A stretch of DNA of 64,000 nucleotides from an uncultured Rickettsiales bacterium (GTDB lineage Bacteria; Myxococcota_A; UBA796; UBA9615), in the NCBI GenBank assembly GCA_964416435.1, contig CAYQEG010000010.1:3488-67487 (forward strand), given 5' to 3'. The position numbers and the translations under genes are program-made. Shown piece after piece: positions 197 through 15,383 of the stretch; the first letter of the stretch is position 1; each line of letters opens with the position of its first letter. The notes beneath the pieces were generated by a model. The model ran no database searches. It had not been told where the DNA came from and worked only from the letters and a program-made list of their open reading frames with translations.

Positions 197-582
197 CCAC
201 CGTCGCGTGCGCCGGGTGCGGCACCCTGGTCGACCCCGCCGTCGCGATCCTGGGCGACGACGGCAAGCCCATCTGCGATTCGTGCGAGTCGGACCAGATG
301 GTCGCGGGGGGCTTCGACAAGGTGCTCGGCGGCTATGCCGCCGGCGCGCTGGGAGCCGGGCTCTTCTCCGTCTGCTTCAACCCCCTCTTCCTCCTCTCCA
401 TCGCCGCGCTCCTCGCCGCCGTCGGCGGCACCTTCGCGATCATCCAGAGCGCCGACATCCGCGAGAGCGCCAAGCGCAAGCCGTGGTTCCCCGTGATGAT
501 GGGGCTCGGCGCCGCCGCGGCGTTGGTCCAGCCGGCCCTGTTCATGCTGCAGGTGCTGGTGAGCGCGGCGACCGGCTACTGA
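193..582 (+). CDS. Hypothetical small membrane protein with N-terminal Cys4 zinc-ribbon (CAGCG...CDSC) and two TM helices
   Basis: ORF in track; ATGA overlap with upstream macro gene; hydrophobic C-terminal half. Confidence 0.5.
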   Translation: MTTVACAGCGTLVDPAVAILGDDGKPICDSCESDQMVAGGFDKVLGGYAAGALGAGLFSVCFNPLFLLSIAALLAAVGGTFAIIQSADIRESAKRKPWFPVMMGLGAAAALVQPALFMLQVLVSAATGY

Positions 583-1880
583 CGGATCAGCCGCACCTCG
601 ACGACCTCCGCCGGACGTCGCCCCGACTGCACCGTCACCCGCACCCCCTCCAGCCGCGCCGTGCCCTCGGGTCGCCAGATCCACGTCCACTCGTCGCGAC
701 CGGGACCGTGCTCCACGACCGCGTCTCCCTCGCCGACGATCCCGCCGCCGACCTGCAGCCCCTCGACGGAGACCCTGCGGGCCTCTCCCCGGAGCACCAC
801 CTCGACCCGGTCGATGCGACGCGCGGGCCCCTCCAGCCGCGCCTCCACGACGCCGCGCCGAACGCGAGGTCGGAGCACCGACCAGGCGCCGTCCGGCTCG
901 CGGCGGAGCGGGCCGACCGCGAGCCGCGCCCCGTCCACCCGCTCACCACGCCAGAACCGCGCCCCCTGCGTGCCGTCCGCGAGGTGGTGGGGCAGGTCGA
1001 ACGCCGTCACCACCGACGCGTGGTCCCGGGCGGCCCGGTACTGCGCCTCCAGCCGCTCCAGGCTCGGCGTCTCCCAGTTCGGCCCGAACAGCTCGACGTC
1101 GGCCCACAGCGTCGCGCCGGCCCGGTCCGCGCAGCGGTGCATCAGCTGGTACAGCGCCGGCGCGAGCAGCACGTCGAGGTGGGCGCTGCCGACCCCATCC
1201 ATCACGACGACGACGTCGGGGTCGGCCCCCTGAACGTAGCGGCACCAGGAGATCGGCAGCAGGTTCGCCTGCCCTCGCCCCGACGGCCCCATCACGATGG
1301 CGACCGGGTGCCCCGTCAGCACCCTCAGCCGCGCCACCGCCTCGGCCGTGATCGCGGTCAGCCGCTCCAGCCGGAACCCCCGCGGGGGCGTCCACCAGAC
1401 GGCCTCCGGCGTGTAGTACCAACCCGCCAGGGCCGGGTGGTCGCCGTACCGGGACGCCGCGACGGTCGCCAGCTCGGTGCCCGTCTCCATCGCCTTGCGC
1501 CAGACCGCGAGCGGCACGTTGCGGGTCCGCCAGATCGCCGGGTTCTCCCACGTGCCCAGCCACACCTGCAGCCCGCGGGCGTGGGCCTCGTCCATCAGCA
1601 CCCGGATCGGGTCCCGCCCGTCGGACAGCTTCGCGTCGAGCAAGCTCTGCTCACCGTGGGCGATCCACTGGACGACGATGCCGCGCGTGCCCGCGGCGGA
1701 CGCCCGGTCGAGGTCCTCCCGCATCTGGACGACATCGCCGGTGGAGCCGGCGAGGTTGGGCTGCCAGAACAGGTAGTCGAAGGTCGGCTGGGCCGCCGCG
1801 GGCGACGGCCCGGCCCCCAGCGTGGCGGCGACGAGCGCCGCCGCCAGGATCAGCCGGCCTTGCAGACGCGCACCTCCCAG
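576..1880 (-). CDS. Exported glycoside-hydrolase-like TIM-barrel protein (DUF4434-like); start codon uncertain, possibly CTG or further upstream with an SRRRLL Tat-like motif
   Basis: Signal peptide LILAAALVAATLGAGPSPAAAQP, then GIVVQWIAHG...LQVWLGTWENP; the ORF-track N-terminus (to 2567) overlaps the upstream gene and is likely artifact. Confidence 0.4.
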   Translation of the reverse strand: MGGARLQGRLILAAALVAATLGAGPSPAAAQPTFDYLFWQPNLAGSTGDVVQMREDLDRASAAGTRGIVVQWIAHGEQSLLDAKLSDGRDPIRVLMDEAHARGLQVWLGTWENPAIWRTRNVPLAVWRKAMETGTELATVAASRYGDHPALAGWYYTPEAVWWTPPRGFRLERLTAITAEAVARLRVLTGHPVAIVMGPSGRGQANLLPISWCRYVQGADPDVVVVMDGVGSAHLDVLLAPALYQLMHRCADRAGATLWADVELFGPNWETPSLERLEAQYRAARDHASVVTAFDLPHHLADGTQGARFWRGERVDGARLAVGPLRREPDGAWSVLRPRVRRGVVEARLEGPARRIDRVEVVLRGEARRVSVEGLQVGGGIVGEGDAVVEHGPGRDEWTWIWRPEGTARLEGVRVTVQSGRRPAEVVEVRLIRQ

Positions 1881-3196
1881 GAGCCGGCGCCGGCTCCCCT
1901 GGTGTCGACGATGACCTCGTCCAGGGGGCTGTCGTAGGCGTCGGACAGCTCGACGAAGAACATCCCCGAGTTGGGCAGCAGCTTGCTCCGGGTGACCTCG
2001 ACCCGCTCGGCCCGCGCGCCCTGCACGAAGGTCAGGTCGAAGTCCGTCAGCGACGTGTCCGTCAGCTTCACGCCGACGTACCAGTCGTGGCCCGCCGCCC
2101 CGACCGAGCGCTCCACCGCGACCTTCGGCCGGTCGCCGCCCAGCTGACCCTTGCCGCTGGCGGCGGGCGAGGGGCACCAGCCCCACGCCGCCGGCACGAC
2201 GCGCCGAAGCGCCGCGGGATCGGCGAAGCCGTCGGTGTCGTTCATCTCCCAGATCAGCACCTTGGGCGTGCCCCGCTGGTACTCGCGGGACGTCAGCCAC
2301 GCCTCGATCGACGTGTAGGTGCCGCCCCCCTCGACCGCCAGGTTGAGCAGGTCCGCGCCGAGGCTGTAGCGGAGCAGCGCCGCGAAGCTGTCCTCGAAGA
2401 TCGGCCCGCCCGAGACCAGGTCGTAGTCCTGGCGGCGGCTCTGGCTCGTGCCGACGAGCACCACCTCCGGCGCGGCCACGTCCCCGAGCAGCGACTCGGC
2501 GCTCACCTCTTCGTCCGACGTCGCCTTGTAGGCGACCGACTCCGTGGCCGGCAGGTCGATCTTGCACTTGTCGACCACGATGAAGCGGTAGGTGCCCGAG
2601 TACTTGACCGCGCGCTCCTTCAGCTCGAACGCCGTCTTGGGCACCGACGCCCAGGTCGGCAGCGCCGCCAGCTGGCGGGCCAGCTCCTCCGCCACCACCC
2701 TCTCCGCCGCGGTGCTCCAGTGGTGGTCGCGGTCCATGAACATGTCCGGCCCGAGGCCGCTGCTCTTGCCCAGCTCGACGACGTCGATGACGTTCCAGCC
2801 GGCCGCGCGGAGCTCCTTCACCTTGCGGGCGTAGGACGCCGCCATCGAACCGTCGGCGTAGCCGGAGAACTCCGACCTGCTGCGGTCGAGCTTGGACTCC
2901 GAGAGGGTCAGCCGGCCCGGCACGTCCACGAGGTAGGGGGCGACCCCCTTCGCCCGCAGCGCCGTCGCCAGCCGGGCCAGCGGCGCGGTGCTCGAGCCGA
3001 GGTCGCCCGGCACGAGCAGCTCGCCCTTTGCGAACACCCAGCCGTCCTGGCCCTGCTCCGCGATGACCGCCCAGCGGTCGTGGGGGGCGAACTGGCTCGG
3101 ATCCTTGGCCGCGTCGCAGACCTCGAAGGCGGCGGCGGCGCCCGGCAGCAGCAACGTCAACGCGAACAGCAGGGCGGTGGCACGGGTCGCGGTCAT
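1850..3196 (-). CDS. AlgX/AlgJ-family periplasmic SGNH-like polysaccharide O-acetyltransferase (AlgX-like, cleavable signal peptide)
   Basis: Signal peptide MTATRATALLFALTLLLPGAAAA; DRDHHWS motif paralogous to the DTHW motif of the adjacent AlgJ-like protein; 4-nt overlap with upstream gene. Confidence 0.6.
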   Translation of the reverse strand: MTATRATALLFALTLLLPGAAAAFEVCDAAKDPSQFAPHDRWAVIAEQGQDGWVFAKGELLVPGDLGSSTAPLARLATALRAKGVAPYLVDVPGRLTLSESKLDRSRSEFSGYADGSMAASYARKVKELRAAGWNVIDVVELGKSSGLGPDMFMDRDHHWSTAAERVVAEELARQLAALPTWASVPKTAFELKERAVKYSGTYRFIVVDKCKIDLPATESVAYKATSDEEVSAESLLGDVAAPEVVLVGTSQSRRQDYDLVSGGPIFEDSFAALLRYSLGADLLNLAVEGGGTYTSIEAWLTSREYQRGTPKVLIWEMNDTDGFADPAALRRVVPAAWGWCPSPAASGKGQLGGDRPKVAVERSVGAAGHDWYVGVKLTDTSLTDFDLTFVQGARAERVEVTRSKLLPNSGMFFVELSDAYDSPLDEVIVDTRGAGAGSWEVRVCKAG

Positions 3197-4308
3197 TCTT
3201 CGTCTCCGGGGAGTGTCAGATCGTAAGACACAGCCAGGTAGCGTTCCGGGATCTCCCAGATCACGAGCAGCGGCGGCGCGTCCGTGATCTCGGGGCCGCC
3301 AAGATACGTCCGCATCGGCGCGAACGGGCCGCCCCCCTCCTCGGCGACGTTCAGCACGTCGGCCTGCAGGCCCTGCTTGAGCGCACCCGAGAAGTTCCAG
3401 AGCGGGTTGAACGAGTAGGACGTGCCGACCAGCGCCACCATCGGCGCCCCGGCGTCCCCGAACAGCGCCGCGCTGAGGTCCTCGCCCGCTCCCTGCACCT
3501 CGCTCGTCTCCTGCGGGACCAGCTCGTCGGGCGCCGGGCCGTACTCCTGGAGCACACCGAGGCGCAGGTAGTTCAGCAGGTCGCCCGAGTGCTCGACCGG
3601 GGCGCCGGGCTGCGTGTCGAAGGCCTTGCTCGGCAGGCCCCCGGCGATCCCGGCGGCCCGCAGGTCGGCGACCAGCGCGTCCGCTGCGATGCGCGCTCCG
3701 TCGGGCGTCCAGTGGGTGTCGGTGCGCAGGAACGTGGTCGCGCAGTCAGACGCATCCAGGGCGGCTTCGAGGTCGGGGACGCGGACGCGGCCGTCGACCA
3801 GCGCGCTCCGGACCGCCGCGTAGCGCCCCGGCGCGTGCAGCGGGTAGCGCCCCAGCTTGTCGTCGCAGATCCGCGCCTTGGCCGGCACCAGCGCCACCAC
3901 CAGGTCGATCCGCTGCGCCTCCAGCAGGCCGTGCACCCGCCGGATGAACGCCACCTTGGCCTCCACCTCCGCCTCCTCGTCGGGCAGCGCCTCGAACTCC
4001 TCGGACGTGAACAGGAAGCCGTCGGAGCCCACCAGCGCCCCTCGTCGGGCGGTGCGGAAGCCGAACCACTCGAGCGCCCCCCAGGTCGCGATGCCGAAGT
4101 CCCGGCTCGGCAGCGCCTCGTCGAACTCGTGCTCCCAGCGCGCGGTCCACTCGCCGTGCAGGAAGTCGGCGTCCTCCGGGGCGGTGCGGGCCGCCTTCGT
4201 GGTCAGCGACGACAGGCCCCCGGCGACCAGCAGGACGATGAAGATCACCGCCTGCGCCCGGCTCTGGCTGGCGCCCTTGTGCAGCGGGTCGAGGAAGTCC
4301 TTGGCCAT
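3193..4308 (-). CDS. algJ: Alginate O-acetylation protein AlgJ-like (type II membrane anchor + SGNH-like domain)
   Basis: N-terminal TM VIFIVLLVAGGLSSL; FLRTDTHWTPDG motif typical of AlgJ/AlgX; start overlaps the algI stop codon by 1 nt. Confidence 0.65.
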   Translation of the reverse strand: MAKDFLDPLHKGASQSRAQAVIFIVLLVAGGLSSLTTKAARTAPEDADFLHGEWTARWEHEFDEALPSRDFGIATWGALEWFGFRTARRGALVGSDGFLFTSEEFEALPDEEAEVEAKVAFIRRVHGLLEAQRIDLVVALVPAKARICDDKLGRYPLHAPGRYAAVRSALVDGRVRVPDLEAALDASDCATTFLRTDTHWTPDGARIAADALVADLRAAGIAGGLPSKAFDTQPGAPVEHSGDLLNYLRLGVLQEYGPAPDELVPQETSEVQGAGEDLSAALFGDAGAPMVALVGTSYSFNPLWNFSGALKQGLQADVLNVAEEGGGPFAPMRTYLGGPEITDAPPLLVIWEIPERYLAVSYDLTLPGDEE

Positions 4309-5726
4309 CAGAACTGGAAGTAGAGGAAGGGGGAGTAGGACTGCGCCGCGAGCCGGAGGACCGCGAACACGAACAGGGGGGTGATGACGAGGGGCGAGTG
4401 GGCGAAGCGGAGCCAGGACGTCTGCACGCCGTCGGCGTCCAGGGACGTCCAGCGAGGGGCCAGGTAGCAGAAGGCGATCCCGATCACGATGGTGGCCAGC
4501 TGCAGGCCGGTGACCTGCCAGGACAGGGCGTCGCTCACCCCGAAGCCGTTGAGGCCGATCAGGCCCGCGTACATCGAGCCGGCCGCGCTCAGCGACTCGG
4601 CCCGGAACACCACCCAGCCGATGATCACCAGCACCATCGTCCAGCCGATCCGGCCGACGGTGCGGCTCTTCTCATTCTTGTTGTGACGGAACCCCCGGTT
4701 GCGCTCCAGCGCCAGGATGATCCCGTGCCAGAAGCCCCAGACGATGAACGTCCAGTTGGCGCCGTGCCACATGCCGCCGAGCACCATCGTCGCCATCAGG
4801 TTGATGTACGTGCGCTTCTCGCCCTTCCGGCTGCCGCCGAGGGAGATGTACAGGTAGTCCCGCAGCCAGGAGCTGAGGGACAGGTGCCAGCGGCGCCAGA
4901 ACTCGGTGATCGACGCGCTGATGTACGGGTGGTCGAAGTTCTCGGGGAACCGGAACCCGATCATCAGGGCCAGGCCGATCGCCATGTCGGAGTAGCCGGA
5001 GAAGTCGAAGAACAGCTGGAGCGTGTAGGCGATCGTGCCCAGCCAGGCGTCCCCCATCGTCGGGTCCGACAGCGCGAACGACGCGTCGACGAGCGGCGAG
5101 ATCGAGTCGGCGATCAGCACCTTCTTGCTGAAGCCCGCCATGAACCGGCTGACTCCGCGGCTGAACTTCTCCTTGGTGTGGGTGCGGTGCCGGAACTGCT
5201 CGGCGACCACGTTGTAGCGGATGACCGGGCCGGCGATGAGCTGGGCGAACAGCGCGATGAACGCCGCGAAGTCGATGAAGTTCCGGGCCGGGCGGCTGGT
5301 CCCCCGGTAGATGTCGATCAGGTACGACATCGCCTGGAAGATGAAGAACGACAGGCCGATCGGCAGGATGATCCGCGTCCAGGCGAGCGGCTCCAGCCCC
5401 ATCGCGCCGAGCAGCGCGTTGAAGCTGTCGACCCCGAAGTTGGCGTACTTGAAGTAGCCCAGCGCGCCGAGGTTGCCGACCACCCCCGCCCACAGCCAGC
5501 GCCTCTTGCCGACCGCCGTGACCGCCGCTTCCATCCGGTGCGCGCACAGGTAGCTGCCCGCGGTGACCCCGATCAGCAGCCCCAGGAAGTCGGGCCGCCA
5601 CCAGCCGTAGAAGAACCAGCTCGCCGCCAGGATCCACGCCGATCGGTGCTTCTCGGGGAGCAGGTAGTAGACCCCCAGGAAGACCGGCAGGAACCCGAAG
5701 AGAAATACGTAGGAGCTGAAGACCAT
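4308..5726 (-). CDS. algI: MBOAT-family membrane O-acetyltransferase AlgI
   Basis: 472 aa multi-TM protein with the conserved MBOAT His region (WRRWHLSLSSWLRDYLYISLGG, MWHGANW), like AlgI/DltB. Confidence 0.8.
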   Translation of the reverse strand: MVFSSYVFLFGFLPVFLGVYYLLPEKHRSAWILAASWFFYGWWRPDFLGLLIGVTAGSYLCAHRMEAAVTAVGKRRWLWAGVVGNLGALGYFKYANFGVDSFNALLGAMGLEPLAWTRIILPIGLSFFIFQAMSYLIDIYRGTSRPARNFIDFAAFIALFAQLIAGPVIRYNVVAEQFRHRTHTKEKFSRGVSRFMAGFSKKVLIADSISPLVDASFALSDPTMGDAWLGTIAYTLQLFFDFSGYSDMAIGLALMIGFRFPENFDHPYISASITEFWRRWHLSLSSWLRDYLYISLGGSRKGEKRTYINLMATMVLGGMWHGANWTFIVWGFWHGIILALERNRGFRHNKNEKSRTVGRIGWTMVLVIIGWVVFRAESLSAAGSMYAGLIGLNGFGVSDALSWQVTGLQLATIVIGIAFCYLAPRWTSLDADGVQTSWLRFAHSPLVITPLFVFAVLRLAAQSYSPFLYFQF

Positions 5727-5753
5727 CGGCGGCGGGGCGGATCGAGCGCGCGG

Positions 5754-6404
5754 TCAGCGCGTCGTGGTCTCGTTCTGGATCCAGACGGGGGCGACGCCGT
5801 CGTCCGATGGGAAGATCAAGAAGCTGTAGGCGTTGCCACGCTCCAGCTGCAGACCGGCGATCGGCGCCGACGCGCCGCCGGCGCCGAAGGCCGCGAGGTC
5901 GACCTTGATCCCGTTGACCTCCCGGCTGCCGACCCCCCGCCGGCCGACGCCTTCGATCAGCGCCACCGAGCCGTCCGCCGTCTTGAGGTCCCACGTGCCG
6001 TCGTCGGCGAGGTTGTAGAAGACCACCAGCGCCTTCGCCCGGGAGGACAGGGTGGGATCGCTCAGCAGCGCCGGCTCACCCGCCGCGGTCAGCGCGACGG
6101 TGTAGAAGCCGCCCGCCTTCAGCTCGAAGGATGCCTTGGCGGATCCGGCGACGAGGTCGCGGGTTCCCTCGGCGACCACCCGGTACAGCGTCGAGGTGCG
6201 CGGCGCCACCGAGCCGAAGTCCCGGTCCCCCAGGGTCACGCCCACCGGCACCGCGCCGGCGTTGACCACGCGCACGAACGCGCTGCCCTCGGGCGGCTCG
6301 GGGTCGTACAGCGTGTCCTGGGCCGTCCCCGCCGCGGGCACGAGCAACAGGGAGCAGAGAAGGCCCATCAGGGCGCAGCGACGGGTCAACTGGGCGTGGT
6401 GCAT
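5754..6404 (-). CDS. algF: Alginate O-acetylation periplasmic protein AlgF homolog
   Basis: 216 aa with signal peptide; LYDPEPPEGSAFVRVVNAG, KALVVFYNL...LKTADG and PVWIQ align to P. aeruginosa AlgF (LYGPQAPKGSAFVRAYNAG, KALVRVQNL...LKTADG, PVWV). Confidence 0.75.
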   Translation of the reverse strand: MHHAQLTRRCALMGLLCSLLLVPAAGTAQDTLYDPEPPEGSAFVRVVNAGAVPVGVTLGDRDFGSVAPRTSTLYRVVAEGTRDLVAGSAKASFELKAGGFYTVALTAAGEPALLSDPTLSSRAKALVVFYNLADDGTWDLKTADGSVALIEGVGRRGVGSREVNGIKVDLAAFGAGGASAPIAGLQLERGNAYSFLIFPSDDGVAPVWIQNETTTR

Positions 6405-6446
6405 AGGAGGGTAGGACCGTGCGTGAGTCGAAGCAGGTGCCCCGGA

Positions 6447-8090
6447 TCACCAGGAAGCATAGCCGGCCAGGATCGCCCTCAGCTCGGCATATCCCAGGGT
6501 CTCCGGTGGCGGGTCGATGCTGAAGAGCCCGAAGTACGTCCCAGCGTGGATCCCGAGGTTCAGGTCGATGCCCACGGGGCCGCCCAGCCGCCAGCGGTGA
6601 CCGACGCCGAAGTCGATCAAATTGTTCCAGAAGTCGTTGCGCGCGTCCTTCGCGATCCGAACCTCGCCGAACGGCGCCCAGGCCACGGGGCCCGTCACCA
6701 GGTAGTGGAGGCTGACCCGCCCTCGGGCCGAGATGAAGAAGTTGTGCTCCGGGCGCAGCAGGTAGATCGCCTCGGCGTACACGTCTCCGCAGAACTGGAG
6801 GGTCGTGTAGACGGGCGCCCCGAACTCGAGCCGGCAGCCCGGGCTCTCGATGGCGAACACCGCCCCCGCGCGCACGTCGAGTTGCACCTTCTCCTGGCCG
6901 ATGTCGACCAGCGGGAACGCGGCGCCGACCTGGGCGAACAGGCTGACGCGGCGCTTCCAGAAGCGGAACAACACGCCGCCGCCGAGCATCGCGGTGTTGT
7001 CCGCGTAGATCAGCGGGAAGCCCTGCGGTCCCTGGGCTCGGGACGCCACATCGCGCGAGATCTGGAAGAAGATGTAGGGGTCCAGATCGACGTGCGGGAT
7101 CGGGTGGAGGTAGCCCCGCAGCCGCAGGAACGGCACGAAGTTGCTGAACGTCGTCGGGTGGAACCGGTGCCAGGCGTACCCCTCGAAGTAGACGTCGGCC
7201 CAGACCGGCTTCGCCGTGTAGCGCAGCTCGGCGCGGGCCTGCTTCGCCAGGTCCTCGTCATCGCCCCCGGCCGCCGCCTGGAAGTGGGAGCGGGCCGCGA
7301 AGTCCTTGCGATTGCCCTTGTCGACGTAGCCCCGCAGCAGCTCCACCAGCTGCACGTCGGCCCCCTCCTCGACCGCGCGGTCGTAGGCGGCGTCCGCCTC
7401 CTCCCACTCCTCGGCCTCGCGGTGGGCGTTGCCCTCCTCCAGGGCGAGGTACCAGTCGGGCTGCGGGGGCGGCCGGCTGGCCGCGAGCTGGGCCTCGGCC
7501 TGCGCCGCGACCTCCTCGTTGGGGCCGACCGTCGCCTCCTCGAGCAGCTCCAGCGCCTTCTCCTTGTCGCCGTCGAGCAAGGCGACGTAGGAGCGCTCGA
7601 ACGCGATCACCTGGGGGTCCGCCCCCAGCTCGGCGGCGAACTTCAGCGCCGCGTCGGCGCGGGCGAGCTCGCCCAGGTGCTTGTACTGCTCGGCGGTGGT
7701 CCGCCAGTGGGCCTGGAGGGCCTCCAGCTCCGTCTGGATCCGGGCCGAGAGCTCTTCGTCCGGGCCCGCGGCGGCGCGGATGAACGCCTTGCCGGAGCGC
7801 ACCTTGTCCGCGTCGGCGAGCCACTGGTAGCCGAGCTCGGCGGTGATCCGCTGGGCCGTGTCGGGGTCGGCGTCGGCGTCGACCGCGGCGTCGGCTCCCT
7901 CGAGCAACACCCGGAGGTCCTCCGGCTCGGCGCCGGCCTCCTTCTGCCCGTAGTACTCGCTCATCCACTGGTCGACCGTCCAGCCGGCGCGGTCGTCGTC
8001 CTGGGCGAGGGCGGGGGCGGCGATCAGCGCCACGAGCAGGGCCAACAGAGCGAACCGCTGTCGATGCCCGTGCTGGGTCCGCTGCCTCAT
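6447..8090 (-). CDS. Outer-membrane polysaccharide-export porin with N-terminal TPR-like helical domain (AlgK/AlgE- or PgaA/BcsC-like architecture)
   Basis: Signal peptide ending ALAQ; helical Ala/Glu-rich N-terminal half; beta-rich C-terminal half ending in aromatic AGYASW. Confidence 0.5.
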   Translation of the reverse strand: MRQRTQHGHRQRFALLALLVALIAAPALAQDDDRAGWTVDQWMSEYYGQKEAGAEPEDLRVLLEGADAAVDADADPDTAQRITAELGYQWLADADKVRSGKAFIRAAAGPDEELSARIQTELEALQAHWRTTAEQYKHLGELARADAALKFAAELGADPQVIAFERSYVALLDGDKEKALELLEEATVGPNEEVAAQAEAQLAASRPPPQPDWYLALEEGNAHREAEEWEEADAAYDRAVEEGADVQLVELLRGYVDKGNRKDFAARSHFQAAAGGDDEDLAKQARAELRYTAKPVWADVYFEGYAWHRFHPTTFSNFVPFLRLRGYLHPIPHVDLDPYIFFQISRDVASRAQGPQGFPLIYADNTAMLGGGVLFRFWKRRVSLFAQVGAAFPLVDIGQEKVQLDVRAGAVFAIESPGCRLEFGAPVYTTLQFCGDVYAEAIYLLRPEHNFFISARGRVSLHYLVTGPVAWAPFGEVRIAKDARNDFWNNLIDFGVGHRWRLGGPVGIDLNLGIHAGTYFGLFSIDPPPETLGYAELRAILAGYASW

Positions 8091-8215: not shown

Positions 8216-10345
8216 TCAATACGGGCTCGGCAGGACGTAGGTCCGCCCCGCCTCCGCGAGGGGTGACCAGCGCCCCCACGCTCCGATCACCAGGTCGTCC
8301 AGGCCGTCGCCGTCGATGTCCCCGCCCCGGCACAGCGTGCCGCCGACCGTGTCGCCCGCCTCCTCGCCGACGAACGCCGCGTCGGCGAGGCCGACGGAGA
8401 CCGGCCCGTCGAGCGACGAGAGCGACGAGCCGAGGAACAGGAAGGTCTTGCCGGCGAACTCGCCCCCCTCGGCGTCGCCGAAGGCGCCGATCAGCACGTC
8501 GTCCAGGCCGTCCCCGTCCACGTCTCCGGCCGACGCGACGCTGCCGCCGACCCGCTGGATGTCGGCCGTCGCGGTGAAGGTGATCGCGGCGCCGGCGAGC
8601 GTAGCGCCACCGGCGACCAGGTCCGAGCCGAGCACCAGGTAGGCCTCGCCGCCGGCCTCCTGGGTGCCGTCGGCGAACCAGGCGCCGATCAGCAGGTCGC
8701 CCCGTCCGTCACCGTCGACATCCCCCGCCGACGCGAGCTTGCGGCCCGCCTGGTTGTCGGCGGCGAGGCCGTGGAGCGTCACGTCGGCCGAGGCGAGCGG
8801 GATCGTGCCTCCGCCGACCGCCGACGACGAGAAGATGACGTAGGTGGCCCCGGCCTCGAAGGCCGTGACGCTGGCCCCCTTGCTCCCCACCACGATCTCC
8901 GCCCCGCCGTCGCCCTCGACGTCCGGGATCAGGTCCACCCACCAGCCGGCGAGGTCGAACGCGGCGACCCCCGGCATCTGGACGTCCGCGTCCCCCAGCC
9001 AGACGACCCCGCTGGCGGGCACCGACGACGCGAAGACGAGGTACGCCTTGCCGGCGTCGCCGGAGGTGTCGTTGTTGCCGTAGCCGCCGAAGAGCAGGTC
9101 GTCGCGCCCGTCGCCGTCCACGTCCTCGCCGCCCCGGAACGCCCAGCCGGTCCAGTCGAACGCCCACTCGCCCTGGAAGATCACGTCCGCGTCGCTCGCG
9201 ATCAGCGTGCCCCCTGCCGCCAGGGACGCTCCATAGAAGAGGTACGTCGCCCCCGTCTCCTGGTCCCAGGTGTCCGCGGTGTAGGACCCCACGAGCACGT
9301 CGTCGAGGCCGTCCCCGTCCACGTCGCCCGCGGGCGCCACCGACCAGCCGAGGTAGTCGTAGGGGGCGTCGCCGACGATCGTGGCGTGGGCCGACGTGGC
9401 GAGGCCCAGGTCGCCGCCGTCGGCCAGCGCCGAGCCGAGCACCAGCCACGCCTCGCCCGACGCCTGCCCGTTGGCGTCGCTCCAGTTGGCCCCGACGAAC
9501 ACGTCGTCCAGGCCGTCCCCGTCCACATCCCCGACGCCGCAGGCGCCCATCCCGCTGTGGTCGAACTCGTCGTGGCCGTCCAGCCAGGTCGGCGCGACGC
9601 TCAGGTCGAGGGCGTCGCTGCCGTCGCAGTTGCTGTCGACCCCGTCGGTGGGGTCCTCCCAGCCGGGCCGGCCGGGGTAGACGTCGGCCCGCTCGTCGTC
9701 GCAGTCCCCCTCGCAGGGGACGACGCTGTCCCCGTCGGAGTCGACCTCGAACTCCGCGAGCTCGCCGTCGCAGTTGTCGTCGAAGCCGTTGCAGATCTCT
9801 TCGGCGTCGGGGTGGATCTCGGCGACCGCGTCGTTGCAGTCCCCCAGACAGGGCCACAGGCCGTCCCCGTCCAGGTCCTGCTCGTTGCTCGGCACGTAGG
9901 CGTCGCAGTCGTCGTCGACGCCGTTGCACTCCTCGGGGCGGCCGGAGTAGCGGAGCGGGTCGGCGTCGTCACAGTCCCCCGCGCAGCCGGGCTGCCCGTC
10001 CCCATCACCGTCCAGCTCGCCGGGGTCGGGGGCCCCGTCACAGTCCGTGTCGATCGCGTCGCAGCCCTCGTCGGCGCCCGGGTGGACCGCGGAGGCGCCG
10101 TCGTCGCAGTCAGGGCCGCCGCTCGCGTCGCTCGCGAAGCCGTCCCCGTCGTTGTCCTGGCCGTCGACGCCGTCGCAGTCCTGGTCGATGTCATCGCCGA
10201 ACGGATCGAGAGCGAATCCCCGCTCGGGGTCATCCGGGGCGCAGTCGAGGTGGTCGGGGACCCCGTCCCCGTCGAAGTCGGCGAGGCCGCCGGGGCCACA
10301 CCCCCACGACAAGACCAACACGAACGCTGCGCCCAGACCCCTCAC
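8216..10345 (-). CDS. Lipoprotein with tandem Cys-rich myxobacterial-type putative metal-binding repeats (DCDD...CNG.DDDCDG) followed by FG-GAP integrin-alpha repeats
   Basis: Lipobox LSWGC; repeated CxDDDxDxxxPxxxExCNGxDDDCDG units; multiple GDVDGDGLDD FG-GAP motifs. Confidence 0.7.
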   Translation of the reverse strand: MRGLGAAFVLVLSWGCGPGGLADFDGDGVPDHLDCAPDDPERGFALDPFGDDIDQDCDGVDGQDNDGDGFASDASGGPDCDDGASAVHPGADEGCDAIDTDCDGAPDPGELDGDGDGQPGCAGDCDDADPLRYSGRPEECNGVDDDCDAYVPSNEQDLDGDGLWPCLGDCNDAVAEIHPDAEEICNGFDDNCDGELAEFEVDSDGDSVVPCEGDCDDERADVYPGRPGWEDPTDGVDSNCDGSDALDLSVAPTWLDGHDEFDHSGMGACGVGDVDGDGLDDVFVGANWSDANGQASGEAWLVLGSALADGGDLGLATSAHATIVGDAPYDYLGWSVAPAGDVDGDGLDDVLVGSYTADTWDQETGATYLFYGASLAAGGTLIASDADVIFQGEWAFDWTGWAFRGGEDVDGDGRDDLLFGGYGNNDTSGDAGKAYLVFASSVPASGVVWLGDADVQMPGVAAFDLAGWWVDLIPDVEGDGGAEIVVGSKGASVTAFEAGATYVIFSSSAVGGGTIPLASADVTLHGLAADNQAGRKLASAGDVDGDGRGDLLIGAWFADGTQEAGGEAYLVLGSDLVAGGATLAGAAITFTATADIQRVGGSVASAGDVDGDGLDDVLIGAFGDAEGGEFAGKTFLFLGSSLSSLDGPVSVGLADAAFVGEEAGDTVGGTLCRGGDIDGDGLDDLVIGAWGRWSPLAEAGRTYVLPSPY

Positions 10346-12738: not shown

Positions 12739-14064
12739 CTATTTCAGCCAACCCTCGAGCAGGCCGCGGAGGGACGGCTCGCCGTCGATCTCCTCGAGGT
12801 CGTAGGCGACCCGGAGCAGCGGCTTGCCGACCGTGATGATCCGCCCCAGGTCGATGGGGGTGCCGCTGAGCACGAGGTCGGCCGGCACGGCGTCGAGCGT
12901 CTCCTGCAGATCGGTCCGCTGCTGCTCGGAGTAGCCCATCGCCGGCACCAGGGCGGCGAGGGCGGGGTAGGAGCGGCGGGTGGTTCGAAGCTCGCCCTTG
13001 AAGAACGGGCGGGGGTCGACGATCTCCGCGCCGGCCCGCTGCGCCAGGAGCGTCGCGGCTCCGTAGGGCATGCCGCCGTGGGTCGTCGTCGGCCCGTCCT
13101 CGACGCAGACGACGCGCTTGCCGGCGAGCTCCTCGATGTCGCCGTCGACGAGGCTGAGCCTGGACGCGACCGCGACGACCGTCGCCCCGGGGTTCACCTG
13201 GGCGACGAGCTTGCGCTCGCGGGCCACCAGCTCCGGCGACGCGGTCTGGCTCTTGGCGATGAGCACCACGTCGGCGAGCCGAAGCTGCGCCTCGGAGGGG
13301 TAGTACTTCAGCTCGTCACCGGCCCGGAGGGGGTCGACGAGCACGACGTGGAGGTCCGGGCGGAAGAACGGGAGGTCGTTGTTGCCGCCGTCCCAGACCA
13401 CGACGTCCGCCTCCTGCTCGGCCCGCCGCAGGATGCGCTCGTAGTCGACCCCGGCGAACACCACCCGGCCGGCCGCGACGTACGGCTCGTACTCCTCGCG
13501 CTCCTCGATGGTGCAGTCGTGGGCGGTCAGGTGGTCGAAGGTCTCGAAGCGCTGCACCGCCTGGGCGACCAGGTCCCCGTAGGGCATGGGGTGGCGCACG
13601 CCGACCGCCCGGACGCCGAGGTCCTCCAGGAGGCCGAGCAGGTGGCGGGTCGCCTGGCTCTTGCCGCAGCCGGTGCGCACCGCACAGACGGCCATCACGG
13701 GCCTGCTCGACGCGAGCATGGTGCGGAAGCCGCCGGGGAGCACGAAGTCGAGGCCGGCGGCCTGGACCCGGGCGGCCATGCGGGTGACGTACTCGTTGCT
13801 CACGTCCGAGTAGGCGAAGACCGCCTGGTCGAGCTGCTCCCGGGCGATCAGGTCCTCCAGGTCGTCCTCGGGGACGATCGGGATCCCGTCGGGGTACCGC
13901 GGTCCGGCGAGCGCGGCGGGGAACCGGCGGTCGTCGATGTAGGGGATCTGGGTGGCGGTGAACGCGACGACTTCGACGTTGGGGTCGTCGCGGTAGAGGG
14001 TCAGGTAGTCGTGGAAGTCGCGCCCCGCGGCGCCGAGGATGACGATACGCATGGCCGCGATCAT
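12739..14064 (-). CDS. COG2403-family P-loop protein (predicted GTPase; cyclic 2,3-diphosphoglycerate synthetase-like)
   Basis: N-terminal Rossmann-like MRIVILGAAGRDFHDY; Walker A RTGCGKSQ; 441 aa. This COG/family assignment is recalled from memory and unchecked; only the Walker A motif is firm. Confidence 0.5.
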   Translation of the reverse strand: MIAAMRIVILGAAGRDFHDYLTLYRDDPNVEVVAFTATQIPYIDDRRFPAALAGPRYPDGIPIVPEDDLEDLIAREQLDQAVFAYSDVSNEYVTRMAARVQAAGLDFVLPGGFRTMLASSRPVMAVCAVRTGCGKSQATRHLLGLLEDLGVRAVGVRHPMPYGDLVAQAVQRFETFDHLTAHDCTIEEREEYEPYVAAGRVVFAGVDYERILRRAEQEADVVVWDGGNNDLPFFRPDLHVVLVDPLRAGDELKYYPSEAQLRLADVVLIAKSQTASPELVARERKLVAQVNPGATVVAVASRLSLVDGDIEELAGKRVVCVEDGPTTTHGGMPYGAATLLAQRAGAEIVDPRPFFKGELRTTRRSYPALAALVPAMGYSEQQRTDLQETLDAVPADLVLSGTPIDLGRIITVGKPLLRVAYDLEEIDGEPSLRGLLEGWLK

Positions 14065-14113
14065 GGGCGAGATCGCACAAGCTCACCAGCCCCGACGCTG
14101 GGTGGCTCCGACC

Positions 14114-15034
14114 TCAGCCGACCCCGTCGAACCAGTCGTCGAAGGGGAAGTCCGACCCGATCCGCGACAGCGAGTCGCGGGCCAGCCGATCGATGGCCGC
14201 CTGCTGCTCGGAGGAGAGCGCCTCACTCGAGCCTCCGGCCTTGCCGGCGCGGATCATCTTGACCTCGGTCGCCGGGCCGGCGCCGGGCAACGGGATCGGC
14301 CGGAACTGGGACTCGTGGGCCTTCATCCAGGGCAGCCCCGCGCGCTCCAGGACCGTCGCTCGCTCGCTCTCCGTCAGCCGGACCCCCAGGTGGTCAGCGA
14401 TGCGATCGACGTGGCCCGGCAGGTCGCGCTTCATGTCGCGGAAGTTGAGCAGCAGCACGTTGGCTCGCTCGCGCTGCGGCCACCAGCCCGCGGTGTACTC
14501 CGCCCAGGAGCCGAACGGCAGGCGGTCGGCGAGCCACAGCGTCGTCCACTTCTCGATGGAGAAGGTGTCCAGGACGCCGACGAGGCCGATCATGAAGTAG
14601 TAGGCCGAGACCGCCACCTCCTTCGGGTCGCGGAGCACCACGACGATCCGGGCCTCGCTCTGCCAGGGCACCTGCCCCGCCCCGCCGTGGGTCTTGATGA
14701 CGCGGTGACCGGTGGGCGACAGGGGCGGGGGCGGGTCCAGGCCGAGGACGAAGCTGGGAGCGTCGGGCCAGGGCACCACGTCGTGGATGTGGTCGAACTC
14801 GGCGGCGCCCCGCCAGGCGATCTGCTGGGCGATCTGCAGGCACCAGTTGGTGCCGCTCTTGGGGTAGGTGGCGACGATCACGTCCTCGGGCCCGGCGTCA
14901 TAGCCCTCGAAGTGGCCCCGCGAGGCGAGCGCCCGAGCGGCGAGCGGCGACAGCAGCCGCGCCGCCGGCACGGCGAGGCGCAGCGCGTGCGCGGCGCGGA
15001 ACGCGAGGATGACCGGAGCGAGCGGCTCGATCAC
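14114..15034 (-). CDS. Sulfotransferase (PAPS-dependent family)
   Basis: 5'-PSB motif TYPKSGTNW and 3'-PB-like RDPKEVAVS. Confidence 0.65.
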   Translation of the reverse strand: MIEPLAPVILAFRAAHALRLAVPAARLLSPLAARALASRGHFEGYDAGPEDVIVATYPKSGTNWCLQIAQQIAWRGAAEFDHIHDVVPWPDAPSFVLGLDPPPPLSPTGHRVIKTHGGAGQVPWQSEARIVVVLRDPKEVAVSAYYFMIGLVGVLDTFSIEKWTTLWLADRLPFGSWAEYTAGWWPQRERANVLLLNFRDMKRDLPGHVDRIADHLGVRLTESERATVLERAGLPWMKAHESQFRPIPLPGAGPATEVKMIRAGKAGGSSEALSSEQQAAIDRLARDSLSRIGSDFPFDDWFDGVG

Positions 15035-15050
15035 GGCGACGTCGGAACCG

Positions 15051-15383
15051 TCAGCCGGAGAGGGCGGCGTCGAACTTCGCCGCGAGGACGAAGTCGCTCT
15101 CGGTCAGCCCGTCGATCTCGTGCGTCCAGATGGTCACCGCGACCTTGCCCCACGCCAACTCGATGTCCGGGTGGTGCCATTGCTCCTGAGCGATGGCGCT
15201 GATCCGGTTGACGAACGCCAGCGCCCCGACGAAGTCGTCGAAGCGATAGCGGTTGCGCAAGTGATGGTCGTCGACCACCGCCCAGGTACCGCCGAGCTGG
15301 GCCTGCAACGGCGCGATCTCCGCCGGCGTCAGCGGGTCCACGCCGCCCTTGCAGGGCACACAGTCCTTCTCAGCGAGGCTCAT
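15051..15383 (-). CDS. Pterin-4a-carbinolamine dehydratase (PCD/DCoH family); start taken at internal Met MSLAEKDC
   Basis: PLTPAEIAPLQAQLGGTWAVVDDHHL...WHHPDIE pattern of PCD; ATGA overlap with the upstream metallophosphoesterase stop at 15380-15383. Confidence 0.65.
   Translation of the reverse strand: MSLAEKDCVPCKGGVDPLTPAEIAPLQAQLGGTWAVVDDHHLRNRYRFDDFVGALAFVNRISAIAQEQWHHPDIELAWGKVAVTIWTHEIDGLTESDFVLAAKFDAALSG

Follow-up and report, generated by a model that had tools for sequence, protein, structure and literature searches.

The closest described system to the genes analysed here is the Nfr/NGR system of Escherichia coli, a WecB-dependent system that is activated by cyclic di-GMP (c-di-GMP), presumably makes an exopolysaccharide based on N-acetylmannosamine (ManNAc) and has as outer-membrane protein NfrA, a 16-strand barrel with tetratricopeptide repeats (TPR) (Junkermeier and Hengge, 2021, PMC8669469; Sellner et al., 2021, PMC8669472). 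Genes for alginate-type O-acetyltransferases are present in some nfr clusters, namely in Simplicispira suum and Achromobacter xylosoxidans (PMC8669469, section 11; PMC8669472), and the cluster of A. xylosoxidans also has a BcsB homologue (PMC8669469, PMC8669472). As both papers note such clusters, the occurrence of Alg-type acetyltransferases together with nfr genes had already been observed in genomes; studies of acetylation or of YbcH in nfr systems have not been made (PMC8669469, PMC8669472). Here we analysed a 64-kb stretch of contig CAYQEG010000010.1 of an uncultured bacterium (the window, with a G+C content of 72%) and in it a module of six genes for the O-acetylation and export of a polysaccharide. 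We consider it fairly likely that the module is the periplasmic O-acetylation, glycosidase-like and export half of a Nfr/NGR-like exopolysaccharide pathway, with the synthase located elsewhere, because the family of its outer-membrane barrel protein adjoins NfrB-like synthases, its DUF4434 protein belongs to the YbcH family, and algF and algI lie near the synthase cluster in the closest relative.

The six genes are at the low-coordinate end of the window, with the same coordinates as in the initial annotation of this DNA (lengths in amino acids, aa):

6447..8090, minus strand: TPR and barrel outer-membrane protein, 547 aa, no match in Pfam or NCBIfam
5754..6404, minus strand: AlgF homologue, periplasmic component of the O-acetylation complex, 216 aa, PF11182, PDB 6CZT
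4308..5726, minus strand: AlgI-type MBOAT protein, inner-membrane acetyl-group translocase, 472 aa, PF03062
3193..4308, minus strand: AlgJ-type SGNH-like acetyltransferase with N-terminal membrane anchor, 371 aa, PF16822, PDB 4O8V
1850..3196, minus strand: AlgX-type SGNH-like acetyltransferase with signal peptide and C-terminal carbohydrate-binding-like domain, 448 aa, PF16822, PDB 4KNC
576..~1865, minus strand: secreted DUF4434 (YbcH-family) protein, ~430 aa, PF14488

The gene identities proposed in the initial annotation were supported by Pfam, the PDB matches and AlphaFold2, and all six genes are on one strand, as it states. Its description of overlapping stops and starts was correct for algI/algJ (1 nt) and algJ/algX (4 nt) and incorrect for two further junctions, which have gaps of 42 nt (barrel gene to algF) and 27 nt (algF to algI). 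Copies of the cassette were found to be identical on contigs of three JGI metagenomes and one ENA metagenome. A scan for promoters and terminators gave no promoter-like sites, and the terminator-like sites stayed within the shuffle background.

Relatives' loci were obtained with context look-ups and a scan of GTDB genomes and were read with a tblastn panel, and a metagenome scan was seeded with the synthase. The GTDB representative set does not include the window genome and had its best match at 50-58% identity. In 23 of the 26 genome loci the barrel gene was immediately followed by a gene for a protein of ~930 aa with a family 2 glycosyltransferase (GT2) and an MshEN domain, and the same adjacency was seen in ~30 of the 73 metagenome loci. 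It persists in barrel-family members of Legionella, Coxiellaceae and Elusimicrobiota that are 24% identical. The GT2-MshEN protein is a homologue of E. coli NfrB (35% identity over 705 aa, E=4e-118) in which the motifs DxD, TED, QxxRW and MshEN RLGxxLL are invariant, and its only solved sequence relatives are the MshEN domains of MshE, PilB and PilF. As a rule a BcsB-family gene (PF03170, E=2e-77) and a response regulator come after it, and upstream of the barrel-synthase cluster there are often a WecB-type epimerase, which is the most constant neighbour of the synthase loci, and an NTP-transferase. In one locus (L069) the barrel, GT2-MshEN, epimerase and YbcH-like genes stand in a row.

The Alg cassette was also found to be linked to such clusters. 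The closest homologue of the window barrel protein (P0002, 56% identical) is encoded inside an epimerase-barrel-NfrB-like-BcsB-response regulator cluster, and on the same 27.5-kb contig (L113), 5.5 kb from this cluster, there is an operon of NTP-transferase, algF, algI, methyltransferase and FG-GAP genes, with AlgI 84% and AlgF 57% identical to the window proteins. A second locus (L037) has a full algF-algI-(Rrf2)-algJ-algX-DUF4434 cassette that is 63-85% identical to that of the window. This cassette lies 3.8 kb from a block of MatE, AMP-binding, GAF, NTP-transferase and epimerase genes, where the locus ends inside the epimerase gene; the same MatE-to-epimerase block directly precedes the barrel and synthase genes in L009, L013, L014 and L041-L043. 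In L045 (8689-12823) a NfrB-like/BcsB cluster runs from epimerase to synthase with no barrel-family gene between them; this is the counterpart one would expect to see if the barrel gene had moved to the acetylation cassette. Compared across separate genomes, these arrangements give the impression that one gene set has been divided up in several ways. Further copies of the cassette occur in a clade of uncultured high-GC bins, of which some are labelled Myxococcales, Kofleriaceae or Polyangiaceae, and together with the nfr-cluster acetyltransferases noted in 2021 this weakens the earlier remark that such a system would be unusual in a myxobacterium.

Some variation was observed among these loci. 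A DUF481 gene is present 5 kb upstream of the L045 synthase cluster. For the low-GC loci L029-L034 (Legionella, Coxiellaceae, Elusimicrobiota), the alignment of the panel synthase to the GT2 beside the distant barrel homologue falls mostly within its first ~540 residues, and the synthases there may be shorter, or their MshEN tail may be divergent or missing. Loci L065-L071 (GC 0.52-0.58) have the reversed order epimerase, GT2, barrel and a longer match (residues ~19-684). In the Myxococcales bin BP4.bin10 (L021, 1-7800) a DUF2334 protein and a divergent MBOAT protein are encoded ahead of the Nfr-like cluster, and the MBOAT protein is flanked by two unknown ~540-aa proteins instead of AlgF/J/X; this may be an alternative acetylation/deacetylation set.

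The last gene of the module gives an independent connection to the E. coli operon nfrBA-ybcH, in which ybcH is the third gene. The window protein matches PF14488 with 78.6 bits (cutoff 30), and E. coli YbcH is a full-length DUF4434 protein (PF14488, E=1.5e-69). The NCBIfam YbcH model also matches the window protein (E=2e-4), and a profile of 23 window-type DUF4434 proteins aligned to YbcH in hhalign with a probability of 92% (E=7e-7), including the glutamate of the invariant W-Y-x-T/S-x-E motif. BLASTP of the window protein against YbcH alone was insignificant (E=0.1), and the relation is therefore based on Pfam and hhalign. An AlphaFold2 model with a predicted local distance difference test score (pLDDT) of 91.3 has a GH-A-like TIM barrel followed by a C-terminal beta-sandwich. 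Foldseek with this model returned BT_0435 (4h41, E=5e-14) and then members of clan GH-A (GH5 mannanases, GH164 beta-mannosidase and GH140). A PDB sequence search with the protein gave no matches, and a literature search on DUF4434 returned nothing relevant.

On the minus strand at window 1845-1880, between the algX stop (1852-1850) and the part of the DUF4434 gene that codes for the signal peptide, there is no ATG, GTG or TTG start. An in-frame CTG is found at 1865-1863, 7 nt past a GGAGG (1877-1873), and its product would begin with MQGRLILAAALVAATLGAGPSPAAA followed by QP. The region is identical in three assemblies, and judged from these letters it suggests a CTG start or translational coupling, with a 16-nt overlap with algX. 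The JGI call begins at ATG 1724, by which the signal peptide is lost. In ENA scaffold L002 a run of N at the algX/DUF4434 junction (14570-14600) resulted in a spurious 425-aa gene call, which was discarded as start-codon evidence because it spans the gap.

The first gene of the module encodes the outer-membrane protein. In its AlphaFold2 model, built from a 43-sequence alignment (pLDDT 91.5), a signal peptide is followed by 16 TPR-like helices (~38-288) and by a C-terminal barrel of 12 strands (295-546). The barrel domain is strongly conserved: 17 positions are invariant, a pair of Cys residues is conserved and the C-terminal residue is aromatic. The family is rare: of 1.84 billion representatives searched exhaustively with phmmer, 170 proteins reached E<=1e-3 and 68 reached E<=1e-10. 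Its ~170 representatives at 50% identity come from uncultured high-GC lineages, of which some are labelled myxobacteria, and, as more distant members, from Legionellales and Elusimicrobiota. Ten distant members were checked; nine of them had canonical N-terminal TPR repeats and one had no Pfam match at all, and none of the ten had a Pfam domain on the barrel part.

Homology of this family to NfrA was considered and rejected: when the alignment of the barrel family was compared with E. coli NfrA in hhalign, the match was weak (probability 1.7%) and confined to the TPR helices, and for this reason homology cannot be claimed. As architecture (TPR and barrel) and position are what the two have in common, the protein is to be taken as an analogue and not a demonstrated homologue of NfrA. 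We regard the 547-aa protein as a putative polysaccharide export channel and periplasmic scaffold; the channel function of the predicted 12-strand barrel is suggested by architecture and gene position. A more specific idea, which we hold tentatively and with somewhat less than even confidence, is that a previously undescribed TPR and 12-strand barrel family has replaced the 16-strand NfrA as exporter of a Nfr-type exopolysaccharide, and that its TPR domain docks AlgX/AlgF and the YbcH-like glycosidase.

In comparison with E. coli NfrB-NfrA-YbcH, the common elements are thus a YbcH-family DUF4434 protein and, in the relatives' loci, a TPR and barrel outer-membrane protein encoded beside the synthase, with the synthase itself a NfrB homologue with GT2 and MshEN domains that is linked to a WecB-type epimerase. 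Unlike in E. coli, the outer-membrane protein is not NfrA, as NfrA_C is missing from it and 12 strands are predicted against 16; the window DUF4434 protein is extended by a C-terminal beta-sandwich and carries a signal peptide that is cleavable; genes for a BcsB-like protein and a response regulator stand beside the relatives' synthase; and in the window an AlgIJFX cassette is present and the synthase is not linked. The window itself thus contains the YbcH-family member of the system, with neither a NfrB-type synthase in the cluster nor a NfrA protein. The published descriptions of the Achromobacter and Simplicispira clusters, with nfr genes, a BcsB homologue and alginate-type periplasmic O-acetyltransferases, are similar in content. 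Those are single clusters in Betaproteobacteria with a NfrA porin, whereas the window comes from a high-GC lineage (some bins of which are labelled myxobacteria) and has another porin family and a split arrangement.

The O-acetylation part of the module was assigned with several methods. The 5754..6404 protein groups with AlgF in the hidden Markov model search (PF11182, E=7e-35), and its alignment to Pseudomonas aeruginosa AlgF (6CZT, E=4e-27) covers the whole mature protein, including the LYDPEPPEGSAFVRVVNAG / LYGPQAPKGSAFVRAYNAG stretch that had been quoted when AlgF was first recognised here. AlgI matches PF03062 (E=7e-32), its translation holds the conserved MBOAT histidine in the FWRRWHLSLSSWLRDYLY motif as well as the WHLSLSSWLRDY motif, and it is 84-85% identical to AlgI of L113 and L037. 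The AlgJ-type protein (PF16822, E=1e-71) has a hydrophobic segment, AVIFIVLLVAGGLSSL, close to its N-terminus, and AlgJ (4O8V, E=6e-56) is its best solved relative; RTDTHWTP and LVGTSYS are aligned, with DTHW and GTSYS conserved. For the AlgX-type protein (PF16822, E=6e-41) the best solved relative is AlgX (4KNC, E=8e-25), aligned over residues 25-420, which are the catalytic and C-terminal domains, with DHHW and LVGTS/GTSQS conserved. In both SGNH paralogues the catalytic motifs D-x-H-W and G-T-S-x-S are aligned with those of solved proteins. Judged by these sequence matches, AlgI/J/F/X is a complete four-component Alg-type O-acetylation set, with AlgF, an MBOAT AlgI, an anchored AlgJ-type and a secreted AlgX-type protein with a C-terminal carbohydrate-binding module. 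Full AlgX/AlgF/AlgI/AlgJ cassettes were also seen in Deinococcus hopiensis (L039, FWWU01000004.1, 8420-13162), where the cassette adjoins a GH16 gene, and on a 50%-GC metagenomic contig (L038), with AlgI 61-65% identical and no polysaccharide synthase within 10 kb.

An MBOAT protein with an SGNH-type partner also follows the logic of PatA/PatB, and the initial annotation had named peptidoglycan O-acetylation as an alternative. A PatA/PatB system would consist of the MBOAT protein and a PatB-type SGNH protein only. Here AlgF is present, both SGNH proteins are of the PF16822 AlgJ/AlgX type by model and PDB matches, one of them with the AlgX C-terminal domain, and the same operon encodes an outer-membrane barrel protein and a glycosidase-like protein, which leaves peptidoglycan O-acetylation with a negligible probability.

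The initial annotation had also implied an alginate-like polymer, and the module might acetylate and export polymannuronate or an alginate-type polymer of an Alg8/Alg44 synthase encoded elsewhere. For the four acetylation proteins the best matches among solved structures come from the alginate machinery of Pseudomonas, with the same catalytic motifs and with the AlgJ-type and AlgX-type proteins each matching its namesake best, and the order F-I-J-X resembles part of algX-L-I-J-F. However, the set lies outside an alg operon: alg8, alg44, algK, algE, algG, algL and algD were all absent from the window and its 5-kb flank by Pfam and tblastn. The two non-Alg genes of the module, those for the outer-membrane protein and for DUF4434, associate with Nfr-type clusters and not with alg clusters, and the nearest orthologues of AlgF and AlgI are encoded in physical linkage with NfrB-like synthases. 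Moreover, Pseudomonas AlgF is only 32% identical to the window protein, far below the metagenomic relatives at 55-66%. The polymer is thus very probably not alginate, and an alginate-type pathway with a distant synthase appears very unlikely.

Alg-type proteins are also employed for other polymers. In Pseudomonas fluorescens SBW25 the AlgF/I/J-like proteins of WssFGHI acetylate a non-alginate polymer, that of a BcsB-containing synthase; WssGHI-type acetylation of cellulose employs AlgF/I/J homologues in the same way, and the Wss system relies on BcsA-PilZ and BcsC. The product of the present pathway could conceivably be acetylated cellulose or a different beta-glucan, as the partner synthase acts together with a BcsB-like subunit and the BcsB of the relatives' clusters is bona fide by its PF03170 match. 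This subunit is all that the loci have in common with Bcs/Wss, for BcsA with PilZ, BcsC and BcsZ were not found. The relatives' synthase is a NfrB-like GT2 with MshEN and not PilZ, its PDB search gave no sequence match to solved BcsA, the porin belongs to a new family, the glycosidase-like protein is of the YbcH family, and the WecB-type epimerase accompanies the synthase more constantly than any other gene. We therefore find a glucan product quite unlikely.

Several observations weigh against placing the module in a Nfr/NGR-like pathway. No NfrB-like synthase was found for the window organism in the window or in the metagenome scan of its three JGI samples; none of the 73 synthase-scan loci came from these samples (Ga0115649, Ga0105000 and Ga0105016), an absence that is not evidence because the scan used only two peptide patterns. 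Within the window Pfam on 30 further open reading frames and the tblastn panel gave no GT2 synthase, BcsB or WecB, and no synthase is present in the 5 kb beyond the window start, in agreement with the initial annotation; with no synthase near the module the polymer must come from a synthase encoded elsewhere. No homology of the barrel protein to NfrA was detectable at the sequence level, and PF13283 (NfrA_C) was matched neither by it nor by 58 homologues (precomputed Pfam) or the 10 distant members. To our knowledge every characterised polysaccharide porin is larger than a barrel of 12 strands. Even in E. coli the chemical nature of the Nfr polymer has been inferred from genetics only, and no chemical structure of NGR appeared in the titles and abstracts of the eight papers listed from 2022 on. 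Finally, the close barrel paralogues P0003, P0004 and L015 have no adjoining synthase, and one bin (CAYFOA01) has two barrel copies (L013 and L015).

Since such unlinked paralogues and a two-copy bin exist, the window barrel could be a second paralogue with another role. The module would then be independent and act on an unrelated glycan, its barrel protein having left the Nfr-like pathway as P0003 and P0004 may have done. A neighbour-joining tree, in which the window protein groups with linked (L114) as well as unlinked (L008, L010) copies, and the Deinococcus AlgFIJX cassettes with no synthase nearby are in line with this. The unlinked copies, however, sit beside acetyl-esterase or ALGX genes and thus beside the same chemistry, and DUF4434/YbcH together with the linkages in L113 and L037 all indicate one Nfr-like pathway. 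We regard an independent module as unlikely. In the two-copy bin one barrel gene is in the synthase cluster and the other elsewhere, and the genes beside P0003 and P0004 are of the CE2_N/GDSL acetyl-esterase or ALGX type, which may indicate that the second copy has become specialised in modifying or turning over the polymer. The two barrel-family copies L008 and L114 come from the same ENA sample (ERZ24794654).

For the Nfr/NGR-like pathway that we prefer, we infer the following order of steps. An inner-membrane NfrB-like processive GT2 with c-di-GMP-binding MshEN domains, encoded elsewhere in the genome of this organism, would make the polymer together with a BcsB-like subunit, and a WecB-like UDP-GlcNAc 2-epimerase would supply it; the polymer probably contains ManNAc. 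The nascent chain would be O-acetylated in the periplasm by the Alg-type relay, in which AlgI would move the acetyl group across the membrane, AlgJ and AlgF would pass it on and AlgX would place it on the polymer. Trimming or proofreading of the chain may fall to the DUF4434 protein of the YbcH family, which is secreted and glycosidase-like, and the TPR and 12-strand barrel protein, in the place of NfrA, would hand it through the outer membrane.

Upstream of the barrel gene, at a distance of 126 nt and on the same strand, is the FG-GAP neighbour that had been reported earlier, now found to have a MopE motif as well:

8216..10345, minus strand: MopE-motif and FG-GAP protein, 709 aa, PF11617 and PF01839

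This gene may be co-transcribed with the module, and its membership is uncertain. MopE-motif/FG-GAP proteins are encoded directly beside barrel or algI genes in the window (8216-10345), in L008 (7801-9795) and in L115 (6898-8526 and 13131-16616), and one such gene sits after algI within the same operon. These recurring genes may be members of the system, or they may merely be abundant in these genomes. Beyond the window start the contigs with identical copies encode a 129-aa open reading frame, a Macro-domain protein and MopE-repeat proteins. A sulfotransferase gene (PF00685, E=5e-35) and an adjacent gene for a 441-aa protein with no Pfam match (window 12739-15103) share the strand of the module and lie 4.6 kb upstream of it; in L001 they are followed by a Pterin_4a gene.

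What is new in this locus is the predicted 12-strand TPR-barrel in the place of NfrA, the split gene arrangement and the uncultured high-GC lineage. JGI and NCBI label several AlgF homologues of the window type 'alginate', and the present analysis reassigns this annotation to a different, poorly understood polymer class. The O-acetylation of Nfr-type polymers is relevant to phage recognition; N4-like phages have tailspikes that are glycan deacetylases or esterases (PMC8669472, PMC11654681). The orphan DUF4434/YbcH family gains a consistent context as the glycosidase-like partner of Nfr-type systems, and an uncharacterised outer-membrane barrel family is now flagged as a candidate polysaccharide exporter; if it has indeed replaced NfrA, no smaller barrel would be known to let a synthase-made polysaccharide through. 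The Nfr/NGR pathway, controlled by c-di-GMP through MshEN and known from the biology of E. coli phage N4, would thereby be extended to marine uncultured lineages, some of them labelled myxobacteria.

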